Below are positions 49,167 to 54,363 of a stretch of 64,000 nucleotides of DNA, piece after piece. The position numbers and the translations under genes are program-made. This stretch comes from Alphaproteobacteria bacterium (GTDB lineage Bacteria; Pseudomonadota; Alphaproteobacteria; CAAHEQ01; UBA3637), in NCBI GenBank assembly GCA_045613285.1, contig JAZLAQ010000007.1:485-64484 (forward strand), given 5' to 3'. How positions within the stretch are numbered: the first letter of the stretch is position 1; each line of letters begins with the position of its first letter. Below the pieces are notes generated by a model. That model ran no database searches and was not told the DNA's origin. It saw only the letters and a list, made by a program, of their open reading frames with translations.

Positions 49167-50192
49167 ATGGAAAAAGATAAAGCATTGGAAGCAGCCCTCT
49201 CACAAATTGAACGGGCTTTTGGCAAAGGGTCTATTATGCGTTTGGGACAACAGGGAAATGCTGTTGAAATTCCGGCTATTTCAACCGGTTCTTTGGGGTT
49301 GGATATGGCATTGGGAATTGGTGGTATGCCCAAGGGTCGGATTGTGGAAGTTTATGGCCCAGAAAGTTCGGGTAAGACAACTTTGGCTTTGCATGTCGTG
49401 GCAGAAGCCCAAAAAAAAGGTGGTACATGTGCTTACATTGATGCTGAACATGCTTTAGATCCTGTCTATGCAAACAAATTAGGGGTAAATATTAATGAGT
49501 TGTTGATTTCTCAGCCGGATACAGGGGAACAAGCATTGGAAATCGCTGACACATTGGTTCGGTCTGGTACTATTGATGTTTTGGTTGTAGATTCAGTGGC
49601 CGCTTTGGTTCCAAAAGCTGAATTGGAAGGGGAAATGGGGGATTCTCATGTGGGATTGCAGGCCCGATTAATGAGTCAGGCTCTTAGAAAAATTACGGCT
49701 TCGGTGGCGCGGGCTAATACTTTGGTTATATTCATAAACCAAATTCGTATGAAAATTGGAGTTATGTTTGGAAATCCGGAAACAACAACCGGTGGTAATG
49801 CTTTGAAGTTCTATGCTTCCGTTCGATTGGATATCCGTCGTATCGGGGCTATTAAAGACCGTGAAGATGTTATCGGTAATCAGACCCGTGTCAAGGTTGT
49901 TAAAAATAAAGTTTCTCCACCGTTTAAAACGGTTGATTTTGATATCCTTTATGGTGAAGGAATTTCAAAAACAGGTGAATTAATAGATTTAGGTGTAAAA
50001 GCCGGTATTGTTGAAAAAGCAGGGGCTTGGTTCTCTTGTAAAGGAGAACGAATTGGGCAGGGCCGTGAAAACGCTAAGCAATATTTGAAAGAGCATCCGG
50101 AGTTAGCAGATGAAATTGAACGAGCTATTCGGAATGATGTAAAAGATTTAACGCAAAAAATGTTAGATGGAGAAGTTGCCGCCGCAGAATAA
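49167..50192 (+). CDS. recA: Recombinase A
   Basis: [44 protein letters not shown]. Confidence 0.99.
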
Positions 50193-52917: not shown

Positions 52918-53304
52918 GTGCGAAAATCTAGATATAATTGTTATCATTATTTATATCCGGAAAAAAAAGAGGCCATTCGGTTAAACTTAGCCCGTTCGTA
53001 TTTGAAGGCCGGTCAGCGTCGTAAAAGAACGTTTCGGATGAGTTTTGTAGCAAGTTTACTGTGGATGAGTTGGGTAGTTACTCTACCATCACCTGGTGCC
53101 AGTAAAAGTGTTTTACCTTATTTATCGGCGATGGTAGTAGCTAGCTGTATTGTGGAAACGGCCAAGAAAAGCTTAAAAAGAAATTTTGAACAACAACAGG
53201 AAGCCAAATCTTTATATCATCGGGTAACAAAGTGCCAGACTCAGGATGAATTTTATCAGATAATGCATAAAGTGAATAGGCATTTTGCTGTGCATTCGTA
53301 TTAA
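52918..53304 (+). CDS. Hypothetical membrane protein
   Basis: 128-aa ORF with two hydrophobic segments, immediately after alaS. Confidence 0.55.
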   Translation: MRKSRYNCYHYLYPEKKEAIRLNLARSYLKAGQRRKRTFRMSFVASLLWMSWVVTLPSPGASKSVLPYLSAMVVASCIVETAKKSLKRNFEQQQEAKSLYHRVTKCQTQDEFYQIMHKVNRHFAVHSY

Positions 53305-53353
53305 AAAAATATTTCGAAAATATTTTTACAAGGTGGTTTATTTTGGATAGGGG

Positions 53354-53382
53354 TTGCTATTTTAAAATAAATCGGTTATAAT
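53354..53382 (+). promoter_or_regulatory. Sigma70-like promoter of RNA module 1
   Basis: TTGCTA-17 bp-TATAAT. Confidence 0.7.
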
Positions 53383-53388
53383 TTATAT

Positions 53389-53595
53389 TACAGGGATTGC
53401 CCATCCCTGTGTGGATTTAGAAATCCAATATCATCACGGGCAGAGGAGGGATTTATCTCCTTTTTTGTCATAGGGCATTCACTCGTCGCAGGGTGGATGC
53501 CTGCCAAATAGGGTTTTGCCTGAATAGGCAGGACTATTTTTCGTGATGATTGTAGTTTCTAACATCCACCCGCTGATTTAAATCGGCGGGTTCTT
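53389..53595 (+). ncRNA. C4/CI-like antisense module 1 (target hairpins + three-way-junction RNA at 53491-53571)
   Basis: Stems GGGTGGATG/CATCCACCC, CCTGCC/GGCAGG and ACTA/TAGT. CGTGATGAT and TTTCTAA are complementary to ATCATCACG (53430-53438) and TTAGAAA (53417-53423). Confidence 0.7.
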
Positions 53596-53633
53596 GTTTA
53601 ACAAGGTTGGGATTTGTATGGAAAATAAATATC

Positions 53634-53662
53634 TTGCGAAAAAACAGAAAATCATCTATACT
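53634..53662 (+). promoter_or_regulatory. Sigma70-like promoter of RNA module 2
   Basis: TTGCGA-17 bp-TATACT, at the same offset from the first hairpin as in module 1. Confidence 0.65.
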
Positions 53663-53668
53663 GATGTG

Positions 53669-53884
53669 GCAAGAATAGCCGATTCTTGTTGTGGGTTTCA
53701 ACGCCCTATGATTTATACGGATAAAACAGAGATACTTTTGTCTCTCTGGTATTTTATCGGGCATACCATCTATGTGTTGGGTGGATGCTTGCTGAATATT
53801 GTTTTTAATTTAATAGGCAAGACTATTTTTCGTATAAATCATAGTGTTGAACATCCACCCGCTGATTTTATCGGCGGGTTCTTT
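53669..53884 (+). ncRNA. C4/CI-like antisense module 2 (three-way-junction RNA at 53779-53860)
   Basis: Same scaffold with compensatory changes. CGTATAAATCATAG and GTTGAA are complementary to CTATGATTTATACG (53706-53719) and TTCAAC (53697-53702). Confidence 0.7.
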
Positions 53885-53904
53885 GGAATGAAAGCGAGGT
53901 AGTT

Positions 53905-54363
53905 TTGGCAATTTGTACTTTCTTTGGACATAGATTTTTAGTCTTTGGAACCGGTTTGATACGGGAGCCATTGGAAAATAAGATTCGGGATTTAATAGTC
54001 AATCATCAGGTCGATACTTTTTGGTGTGGTGGTAAAGGGAGTTTTGATTCGCTTGTTTTGGAAACATTAAAGAAATTAAAACAGGAATTTTTCCCCCATA
54101 TTCAGATTACTTTAGTATTAGCAAACATACCAACCAATAAAGAAATTTATCAGTCTTATCAGCGGGCTTACGATACAATCTTTTATCCTGATGGTATAGA
54201 AGGATTGCCCCGATTTGGTATTTTTCGACGAAACCGTTGGATGGCTGAAAACACAGATTATGTTATCTGTTATGTCCGAACAGAACAAGGCGGTGCCTAT
54301 GATTCAATGAAATACGCCCAAAAAAAAGGAAAGACAATTTTTAATTTAGGTGCTAATCATTAA
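53905..54363 (+). CDS. DUF1273/YspA-like SLOG family protein
   Basis: CTFFGHR, GGKGSFD, RNRWM, GGAY...YA.KKGK.I.NL; TTG start after a GAGGT RBS. Confidence 0.75.
   Translation: MAICTFFGHRFLVFGTGLIREPLENKIRDLIVNHQVDTFWCGGKGSFDSLVLETLKKLKQEFFPHIQITLVLANIPTNKEIYQSYQRAYDTIFYPDGIEGLPRFGIFRRNRWMAENTDYVICYVRTEQGGAYDSMKYAQKKGKTIFNLGANH

Follow-up and report, generated by a model that had tools for sequence, protein, structure and literature searches.

We identified, in a 64,000-nt stretch of an alphaproteobacterial contig (JAZLAQ010000007.1; the whole stretch is called the window), two head-to-tail units of ~288 bp each that lie inside positions 53340-53910 and carry the parts of a structured regulatory RNA. 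The best explanation, to which we give a probability of roughly 0.7, is that each unit is a divergent leader riboregulator of the C4/CI/IsrK type that gates a YpsA-like gene and that was duplicated here with a new address. As part of this explanation, the unit pair would be the 5' control region of a SLOG gene at 53905-54363. C4, CI and IsrK are known from Gammaproteobacteria, where they serve as isolated immunity devices of phages. An earlier note, made from the letters of the window, had described the units as a tandem array of C4/CI-like modules and had proposed that the host keeps them as guide-like antisense RNAs that silence phages or satellites in trans, with a different immunity group for each RNA. 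All the parts it listed were found in place, and the architecture is indeed that of a C4 core topology behind a c4-a1b1- and isrK-like leader; membership in the Rfam families did not follow, with no match at E<=10. Nor was the trans-silencing array supported, since each unit targets its own leader and cassettes of this kind stand directly 5' of ordinary cargo genes throughout the RNA family.

Both units (unit 1, 53354-53600; unit 2, 53634-53886) have the same order of parts: a promoter-like site, a 5' hairpin, target a, target b, a hairpin, a core and a 3' hairpin (Table 1). Their mean column identity is 79% when aligned, with direct repeats of 66 nt (79% identity) and 27 nt (81%) spaced 288-289 bp apart. 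In each leader a small hairpin presents a 6-7-nt segment (a), and a 9-14-nt segment (b) follows a few bases 3'. The core is 81-82 nt long in both units and forms a three-way junction whose closing stem (GGGTGGATG/CATCCACCC) is paired at 9 of 9 positions in units 1 and 2 (inverted-repeat scan); the 3' hairpin (ACCCGCTGA/TCGGCGGGT) shares the last four bases of this stem, as in the earlier description. The loop of a short ACTA/TAGT stem holds the guide segment b', and the strand between that stem and the closing stem holds a'. Guide and target are exactly complementary over 9 + 7 nt in unit 1 and 14 + 6 nt in unit 2, within inverted repeats that join 53411-53438 with 53542-53569 (28 nt, 71%) and 53706-53724 with 53826-53844 (19 nt, 89%). 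The 5' hairpin stems differ in sequence between the units and keep their pairing, as expected of compensatory change. Promoter-like hexamers were found where they had been proposed (10/12 and 9/12 consensus matches), and a hexamer pair stands at the equivalent place in most homologous units. By themselves these sites carry little weight: the region contains 10 of the kind, and shuffled versions have 5.4 +/- 2.2. Terminator-like sites number three, against 1.1 +/- 1.0 expected, and all are in unit 1 (53442-53463, 53512-53535 and 53568-53591). The equivalent hairpins of unit 2 fold, but their T-runs are weaker and fall below the terminator scan.

The guides covary with their own targets. In an alignment of 38 whole units, the 18 long-range pairs as in unit 1 were standard-paired in 83.4% of the cells, compared with 61.2% after shuffling, and none of the 500 shuffles reached the observed value; sliding the partner by 1-3 columns left 33-45% paired. 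Double-change cells numbered 150 against 45.8 expected, and 15 of the 18 pairs had compensatory changes. The alignment-free comparison agrees: the longest uninterrupted complementarity of a guide to its own leader had a median of 10 nt and reached at least 8 nt in 49 of 62 units, whereas against foreign leaders the median was 6 nt and at least 8 nt was reached in 5.6%. The short-run cases are interrupted by G-U pairs. The covariation of unpaired segments with each unit's own target, as claimed for the two units, is thus kept in homologs. That the units are more than chance is also borne out by their whole-unit fold z-scores (-9.7 and -7.4), by the recurrence of the architecture in 112 distinct units from many genomes and by covariation far above the shuffled and the slid controls.

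Guide columns are the most variable part of the core (1.06 and 0.94 bits, compared with 0.66 elsewhere), and among 31 core pairs that are at least 95% identical in the scaffold, identity in the guide columns is only 68%. By this sequence comparison, guides change faster than the scaffold. Orthogonality can be followed in one 1.1-Mb genome of the order (G072), where 30 units were compared all against all. The own target gave the best duplex for 24 of the 30 guides and ranked 2, 2, 3, 10, 22 and 25 for the other six, with a mean duplex energy of -18.7 kcal/mol for own and -11.1 kcal/mol for cross pairs. These units have 27 distinct b' loops and 23 distinct a' junctions, and their (b', a') combinations are all distinct. 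Some units share one key and differ in the other, as is also the case in a four-unit group on one contig (L042, L072).

Whole-unit transcripts are predicted to adopt a closed fold. For unit 1 (53389-53600; -97.5 kcal/mol, z -9.7), the 5' hairpin is kept, 53412-53438 is paired with 53542-53569, the pre-core element GGGCAUUCACUC is paired with the core 5' strand and the 3' hairpin is complete; the predicted fold of unit 2 is of the same kind (-82.9 kcal/mol, z -7.4). Cores cut out of their transcripts fold as the three-way junction (-31.6 and -22.5 kcal/mol, z about -3.7) with a' and b' exposed, and the consensus fold of 38 cores is the same junction as in the single-sequence folds. The pairing of the pre-core element with the core 5' strand is conserved and tracks the closing-stem variant: over 112 units, the mean was -18.4 kcal/mol for own and -12.9 kcal/mol for foreign partners, with an advantage of at least 3 kcal in 87 of the 112. 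Four mutually exclusive helices (target-guide, pre-core with core 5' strand, core 5' with 3' strand, and core 3' strand with 3' hairpin) are the hallmark of a switch.

The same folds can be read purely in cis. Each unit would then be a structured 5' leader (an attenuator, a thermosensor or a protein- or ligand-binding element), and target and guide would form ordinary long-range helices without a trans-acting RNA. The cis-paired fold is the most stable one predicted for each whole unit, every guide has its partner ~100 nt upstream on the same transcript, no second target was found elsewhere in the genome, the units stand directly before genes, and the AAUA/AAUA internal loop conserved in the first core hairpin is a possible binding site. 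Yet we consider this reading unlikely, because it leaves unexplained why the addresses change fastest on a near-fixed scaffold and why one genome holds 30 distinct (b', a') combinations with the own target ranked first for 24 of 30 guides. Moreover, the core keeps RNase P-like termini and folds alone into the C4 topology, and IsrK, a look-alike that has been studied by experiment, works both in cis and in trans (PMC4825925). A trans component is indirectly suggested in that the addresses change fastest, each unit has a unique two-key address in its genome and the studied relatives act in trans.

Under the riboregulator explanation, the choice of fold would decide whether transcription, and in some relatives also translation, continues into the cargo gene, by analogy with t1/seqA/CI of P4 and IsrK/STnc1160 of Gifsy-1. 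A stable product of the unit could act on fresh transcripts of the same unit and so provide autoregulation, as in those systems. This product may be a short leader RNA or the excised core, whose GG start and RCC tail resemble those of RNase P substrates. The putative RNase P cut would fall at the G before GGUGGAUG. If the analogy holds, a fast-changing two-part address (a, b) would keep the 3 to 36 units of a cell from cross-talk. The tandem pair would be a duplicated regulatory unit with a new address, and transcripts of the SLOG gene would come from the proximal promoter and, through read-through, from the distal promoter as well. An extension of this scheme is conceivable, and we advance it tentatively: the stable C4-like or short leader RNA of each cassette would act in trans only on transcripts with the same two keys (a AND b), giving each pilin-like, lipoprotein, autotransporter or SLOG gene a private, orthogonal feedback. 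Selection against cross-talk would diversify the addresses, and tandem or leaderless ('orphan') cores might be spare addresses against incoming phages with the same cassette. If so, nature would have built dozens of orthogonal riboregulators on a single scaffold, as a library.

Table 1. Positions in the window of the parts of the two units and of the gene that follows them
Feature	Position	Strand	Evidence or remark
Unit 1 promoter-like site, TTGCTA-17-TATAAT	53354..53382	+	10/12 consensus matches
Unit 1 5' hairpin P1, ACAGGGAT/ATCCCTGT, loop UGCCC	53390..53410	+	Inverted repeat and folds; stem varies between units, pairing kept
Unit 1 target region	53412..53438	+	Hairpin presents a (TTAGAAA, 53417-53423); single-stranded b (ATCATCACG, 53430-53438)
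Unit 1 attenuator-like hairpin P3 with T-run	53442..53466	+	Terminator-like site 53442-53463 and fold
Unit 1 pre-core element GGGCATTCACTC	53473..53484	+	Alternative 'anti-core' pairing with core 5' strand; 12-bp hairpin in minimum free energy (MFE) fold
Unit 1 core	53491..53571	+	Three-way junction; 88.1 bits, E 2.8e-16 (model R1); fold -31.6 kcal/mol, z -3.7
Unit 1 core pieces			Stem GGGTGGATG/CATCCACCC; hairpin CCTGCC..GGCAGG; ACTA/TAGT with loop b' CGTGATGAT (53542-53550); a' TTTCTAA (53556-53562)
Unit 1 3' hairpin ACCCGCTGA/TCGGCGGGT, T-rich tail	53568..53600	+	Terminator-like; overlaps last 4 nt of closing stem
Unit 2 promoter-like site, TTGCGA-17-TATACT	53634..53662	+	9/12 consensus matches
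Unit 2 5' hairpin P1, GCAAGAAT/ATTCTTGT	53669..53689	+	Fold; compensatory relative to unit 1
Unit 2 target region	53693..53719	+	Hairpin presents a (TTCAAC, 53697-53702), then b (CTATGATTTATACG, 53706-53719)
Unit 2 hairpin P3 CAGAGA..TCTCTG, then GGTATTTTATC	53727..53759	+	Folds; unflagged by terminator scan
Unit 2 pre-core element GGGCATACCATC	53759..53770	+	Pairs with core 5' strand in MFE fold
Unit 2 core	53779..53860	+	Same three-way junction; 82.6 bits, E 4.6e-15 (model R1); fold -22.5 kcal/mol, z -3.6
Unit 2 core guides			b' CGTATAAATCATAG (53831-53844); a' GTTGAA (53846-53851)
Unit 2 3' hairpin ACCCGCTGA/TCGGCGGGT, tail TCTTTGG	53857..53886	+	Fold; unflagged by terminator scan
Cargo gene, 152-aa YpsA-type SLOG protein	53905..54363	+	TTG start; GAGG 7 nt upstream

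Two further observations concern the array itself. The pre-core region of unit 1 (53471-53479, TCATAGGGC) is perfectly complementary over 9 nt to the target region of unit 2 (53704-53712, GCCCTATGA), as part of an inverted repeat of 27 nt (70%); about one such match is expected by chance per 800 nt. Two open reading frames (ORFs) overlap unit 2, one of 102 amino acids (aa) at 53594-53902 (+) and one of 76 aa at 53534-53764 (-). We treated both as spurious, given the conservation of this region as structured RNA and its compensatory changes.

The two units belong to a large RNA family. BLAST recovered a third copy in the genome of the window and copies in 4 of 40 relatives. A pattern scan built from the conserved core ends was then used on IMG/VR, where it found 3 contigs, and on a species-genome collection, where it found 55 loci. 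Six of the 55 were dropped before all counts as simple repeats of the GGGTGGATGGGTA type, five from cyanobacteria and one from Saprospiraceae. These dropped loci (L032, L044, L048, L075 and L078 in cyanobacteria; L080 in Saprospiraceae) are unrelated, inverted arrays of short GGGTGGATGGGTA-like repeats. Of the 49 that remained, 44 are titled as metagenome-assembled genomes of uncultured Alphaproteobacteria from human, ruminant and other animal guts; the titles of the other five name Rhodospirillaceae (2), Proteobacteria (1), 'uncultured bacterium' (1) and Ruminococcus (1). As the earlier note had suggested, a covariance model was built and the genome and its relatives were scanned. The model (R1), made from 38 aligned cores with distinct guides, matched 6 copies in the 1.27-Mb genome of the window and 404 in 67 of the 80 genomes of its taxonomic family, a family-level set that is the entire order. 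Among good-quality genomes of the order, 46 of 54 were matched. Cassettes number 3 to 36 per genome of ~1 Mb, the maximum being the 36 core matches of G072. In a sample of the class with one genome per family, R1 matched 6 of 119 other families, in genomes that were all of 0.9-2.0 Mb.

Conservation within the family follows the predicted structure. The closing stem was invariant in the first alignment because the pattern had fixed it; in lower-scoring R1 matches, which include subfamilies, it covaries, with the variants GGGCGGAUG/CAUCCGCCC, GGUUGGAAG/CUUCCAACC, UGGUGGGUG/CACCCACCG and GACUGGAUG/CAUCCAGUC. The short second stem covaries (CUA/UAG, CCGU/ACGG, CCAU/AUGG), and the first core hairpin keeps its AAUA/AAUA internal loop. 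The 3' hairpin itself is conserved in homologs. C4 itself is excised by RNase P from a longer transcript, with a GG(U/A) start and a tail that ends in CC after the stem. Here the closing stem begins with GGG in 60 of 66 units, and in 53 of 66 it is followed by RCC, termini that appear compatible with RNase P-type processing. In the literature searched, we found no description of this core family in Alphaproteobacteria, although the c4-2 supplements of PMC5737381, which may bear on the tracing of c4-like motifs, lay outside the search. As far as its sequences tell, the core family is large, is without an Rfam entry and heads dozens of accessory genes in small-genome gut Alphaproteobacteria.

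The gene that follows the array encodes a YpsA-type SLOG protein, an assignment that draws on its predicted structure. Against Pfam YpsA (PF06908) the 152-aa protein scored 26.2 bits, slightly below the cut-off of 27.7, and five of its eight homologs matched the family at E<=0.001 (best 3.3e-8). The AlphaFold model has a predicted local distance difference test (pLDDT) score of 91.8, and its best match among PDB structures was YpsA of B. subtilis (2NX2; template modeling (TM) score 0.78, E 1.7e-7), with DprA and ShosA next. When the SLOG alignment was run as a profile against PDB sequences, there was no match at E<=0.01. Homologs of the protein also follow core RNAs elsewhere, as 8 ORFs in 7 other loci with 30-54% identity (BLAST). 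Overexpression of YpsA is reported to block cell division in Bacillus (PMC6459960, PMC7376506). A C4-like RNA paired with a protein of the YpsA type brings to mind c4-icd of P1, a parallel that we only infer.

The setting of the array is chromosomal. The order of genes is recA, alaS, an unknown 128-aa ORF, the array and the 152-aa gene, followed by hisS on the opposite strand and by genes for an SLT transglycosylase, an LD-carboxypeptidase and a U32 peptidase. No phage genes were found within ~7 kb of the array, in line with the earlier note. As a detail of this neighborhood, the longest alaS frame starts (window 50167-50192) 26 nt before the recA stop; because relatives align to alaS only from residue 17-33 on, the true start is probably further downstream. 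In seven same-genus genomes with an orthologous alaS, the cassette of two units and SLOG gene is absent downstream of it. One of the seven (G003) has a different unit there, which precedes a lipoprotein gene. At this position, the cassette is therefore specific to the genome of the window among those compared. In four of the seven, extended 4.4-5.1 kb past alaS, no core, SLOG or hisS match was found, so an empty site cannot be defined. Scans of metagenomes with 26-nt guide strings of units 1 and 2 gave no match.

Such patchy presence, together with related cassettes that adjoin HU genes in phage contigs, might suggest a decaying remnant of a prophage moron or immunity region that has no present function. 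We find this very improbable. Promoter-like hexamers and all helices are kept in both units, as are the perfect guide-target matches (9+7 and 14+6 nt), and the SLOG frame is intact, with the confident structural model described above. Furthermore, where the address of one unit departs from that of the other, target and guide have changed in step, which requires selection.

Cassettes elsewhere have the same relation to the genes behind them. Surveying the first downstream ORF of 66 distinct units from the collected loci, we found that it usually starts ~30-55 nt past the 3' hairpin. SLOG proteins, recognized by eye from an N-terminal C-x-F-[FLI]-G-[HN] motif, were the most frequent cargo (28 of 66). 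The others were small lipoproteins, type IV pilin-like proteins, a 62-76-aa protein, an endonuclease I-like secreted protein and proteins with signal peptides, and the genome of the window also has a POMP-repeat autotransporter as cargo. Tandem arrangements are common and of two kinds. RNA and gene may be repeated together three times (L029, and the group L033, L060, L088 and L089), or two RNA units may follow each other with no intervening gene and precede a SLOG gene, which is the layout of the window (L072, and likewise L042). One of the three IMG/VR contigs with a core also carries tape-measure, J-like tail and endolysin genes. In a phage contig (L026), units lie past the tail, endolysin and HU genes and ahead of unknown genes, with a SLOG gene nearby. 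In L018, L019 and L023 the order is HU, RNA, SLOG and a diversity-generating retroelement (DGR).

Several of these loci deserve a closer description. The other four units of the window's genome (G000) are at C20:33029-33113, C23:49067-49148, C34:259-341 and C1:40618-40707; three have the closing stem GGUUGGAAG/CUUCCAACC and precede one lipoprotein gene and two type IV pilin-like genes, and one lies ~120 nt upstream of the gene for the POMP-repeat autotransporter (794 aa). Cargoes in G072 include several proteins of ~380-420 aa that share an N-terminal '...TAGSSGSADAAPRMT...' motif and several pilin-like proteins. In L018 (9443-15805), as in L019 and L023, the DGR is directly past the RNA-SLOG cassette. 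It comprises an Avd-like 197-aa protein (a weak match to NCBIfam DivGenRetAVD) and, as read from translations, a template-like stretch (...CASWSASSNENENVRCVNY... frame), a reverse transcriptase of 359 aa (YMDD) and an AAA-type protein of 649 aa, in whose N-terminal part the template recurs (CASWSASSNDYGDVRCVY). This would place the variable region at the N terminus and downstream of the reverse transcriptase. In five of 63 units, all ahead of SLOG genes (L017, L018, L019, L058 and L073), the ribosome-binding site (RBS) just before the ATG holds a 7-9-nt copy of the closing-stem 5' strand (GGGTGGAT), ~36-40 nt past the core, and the far-upstream control region holds no such copy. The core 3' strand could thus mask the RBS in these units, whose 3' hairpins apparently have no T-run (by eye). 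Genes for WYL-WCX regulators adjoin the RNA-SLOG cassettes of L017 (2439-3407, -) and L020 (6936-7871, -). One of these two loci has genes for a PD-(D/E)XK nuclease and an ankyrin-repeat protein nearby and the other an endonuclease I gene straight after the SLOG gene, which may be an accessory or defense-island context.

Searches for other targets bear on the array of trans-silencing guides that had been proposed. In the 99.8%-complete genome of the window, a strict search for bipartite targets returned the own leader as the sole strong match of each guide. A loose search (minimum of 8 nt of b and 6 nt of a) added three sites for unit 1 and one for unit 2. We judged these to be chance because their duplexes are weaker (-13.8 to -20.6 kcal/mol, compared with -23.9 and -29.5 kcal/mol for the own targets) and three of the four are inside open frames of 125-202 codons. 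The expectation that phages would carry matching targets was not borne out in the phage collections searched. IMG/VR held no match to the target of unit 1 and a single match to that of unit 2, in coding-like sequence with no core nearby, and the array matched none of 50,697 phage records in blastn.

Members of the family do occur in phage contigs and prophage-like loci, and their addresses are diverse, as a host-kept array would have them. A same-genus genome (G007, 96% complete; contig C4) even holds two tandem 'orphan' cores 19 nt apart (L137, 1204-1283 and 1303-1382) that have no leader or target of their own and lie upstream of a complete third unit and a lipoprotein gene; a pattern search of that genome for their bipartite targets returned only the reverse complements of the guides themselves. 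A like idea was put forward for C4-like small RNAs (sRNAs) by the authors of the A. baumannii study (PMC5320573). Nonetheless, we give the silencing array scarcely any credence for the window. Both units have a complete leader and target of their own and stand directly before a cargo gene, as single units do elsewhere, and most members of the family head chromosomal genes for pilin-like, lipoprotein and SLOG proteins; the phage collections, moreover, gave no leader-like target.

In our reading, the C4 design, although invisible to the Rfam models, is now a general 5' control cassette in an uncultured order of small-genome Alphaproteobacteria of gut and rumen. In some genomes the cassette heads about one gene per 30 kb, and the products of these genes are for the most part surface proteins and YpsA-like SLOG proteins. 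Should the addresses work in trans, they would be a ready set of orthogonal two-key RNA switches, of interest in RNA engineering and for the question of how paralogous surface-protein genes come under individual control. For the a1/b1 sites of P1, how C4-type RNAs choose their targets has, to our knowledge, not been settled. With more than 400 copies whose guides and targets are matched, the family is a natural data set for studying this choice.

A number of results weigh against the riboregulator explanation. We scanned the whole window with Rfam 15 at gathering thresholds, which returned two tRNAs only and no C4, and positions 53200-54000 at E<=10. In the latter, none of the C4, c4-a1b1, c4-2 and isrK models matched, the first three of which the earlier note had proposed as a check. 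Nor did they match in six homologous loci (C4 at E<=1), and the C4 model (RF01695) had no match over the whole genome of the window at E<=10. The immI region of P1, run as a positive control, scored well (C4, 68.8 bits with a cut-off of 45; c4-a1b1, 51.0; isrK, 35.1). In the reverse direction, R1 matched neither the P1 c4 nor the P4 genome. Without a model match in either direction, common descent from C4 is unproven, and convergence is possible. The switching logic is blurred by the predicted closed fold, in which the 3' hairpin forms with or without a bound trans partner. Of the hairpins between target and core, only some have a T-run, and several 3' hairpins have none. In 3 of the 30 units of G072 (ranks 10, 22 and 25), the own pairing is weak within the searched window. 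Finally, guides have no second target in their own downstream 130 nt (mean longest run 5.90 nt, compared with a background of 5.87 nt; 62 units), and the P1 mechanism of RBS occlusion cannot apply as such. With that mechanism ruled out, leader-directed mechanisms like those of P4 and Gifsy-1 are indicated instead.

Other kinds of RNA were considered and set aside. Type III toxin-antitoxin systems have short tandem RNA repeats that the adjacent protein cuts and that are always paired with this protein family. Such a system does not fit units of 288 bp that each have a promoter-like site, nor an RNA that precedes genes as unrelated as those for pilin-like proteins, lipoproteins, endonuclease I-like proteins and the POMP autotransporter. 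The Rfam scan of 53200-54000 (E<=10) found no T-box or other riboswitch. A retron or DGR RNA was rejected because a reverse transcriptase is nearby in one locus group only.

Among known systems, the immI region of P1 and P7 (RF03163, RF01695; clan CL00128) is the closest in layout, with a promoter, a hairpin, a hairpin with a in its loop, b, a U-run hairpin and a junction RNA of ~80 nt in the same order. In the Rfam C4 consensus (RF01695), the closing stem encloses one hairpin, another whose loop has 12 nt and a single strand of 7 nt; after the 3' strand of the stem comes a tail that ends in CC. In c4-a1b1 (RF03163), the first hairpin is immediately succeeded by one that carries a1 in its loop, and the isrK model (RF01394) adds a terminator hairpin. 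As in C4, b' is in a large loop, a' is in a junction strand, the tail ends in CC and the address segments vary between relatives. The spacing is also similar: a1 and b1 are annotated 88 and 74 nt before C4 in the P1 record, and a and b of unit 1 lie 74 and 61 nt before the core. On this comparison of consensus topology and a/b order, topology and part order are the same. In contrast to C4, the units here lack a covariance-model match, have a closing stem of 9 bp instead of ~17 and have no a2/b2 target at the RBS of the cargo gene. They form a chromosomal, massively multicopy family whose cargoes are genes for YpsA-like SLOG, pilin-like or lipoproteins and not icd or ant. The phage immunity setting ahead of icd or an antirepressor gene is likewise missing, with housekeeping neighbors in the window and other genes behind the members in phage contigs.

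In P4, CI RNA pairs with seqA, transcription terminates at t1 and the system is autoregulated (summarized in PMC4825925). The units resemble P4 in an upstream complementary target, in the terminator-like hairpin that unit 1 has between this target and the RNA gene, and in an RNA that would be cut from the leader of the operon it controls. They differ in having no seqC-like downstream site and no R1 match in the P4 genome, and the T-run hairpin between target and core is found in unit 1 but not in all relatives. In Gifsy-1 of Salmonella (PMC4825925), transcription of the leader RNA may stop at a terminator or continue past it. In the longer, read-through transcript the leader pairs in cis with downstream sequence, giving a very stable inactive fold (-85.66 kcal/mol) that the short IsrK RNA opens in trans, and the processed, stable STnc1160 lies downstream. 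The closed folds predicted here (-97.5 and -82.9 kcal/mol) are of the same kind as that locked transcript. Unlike IsrK, the units have no RF01394 match, their partner is a C4-like core and the cargo gene follows the 3' hairpin, whereas the IsrK target is in a small ORF translationally coupled to the antirepressor gene. The 'Group 1' sRNAs of A. baumannii are the nearest case of multiplication: the report on them (PMC5320573) describes many chromosomal C4-like sRNAs that are processed from longer transcripts at GGW and vary in their address loops. The window's family similarly has many chromosomal C4-shaped copies per genome with a GG motif and variable address loops. According to that report, Group 1 is recognized by the Rfam C4 model; the units described here are not. 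In comparison with that group, each copy here has its own upstream target and directly precedes a gene, and the copies are denser, reaching 36 in a genome of 1.1 Mb.

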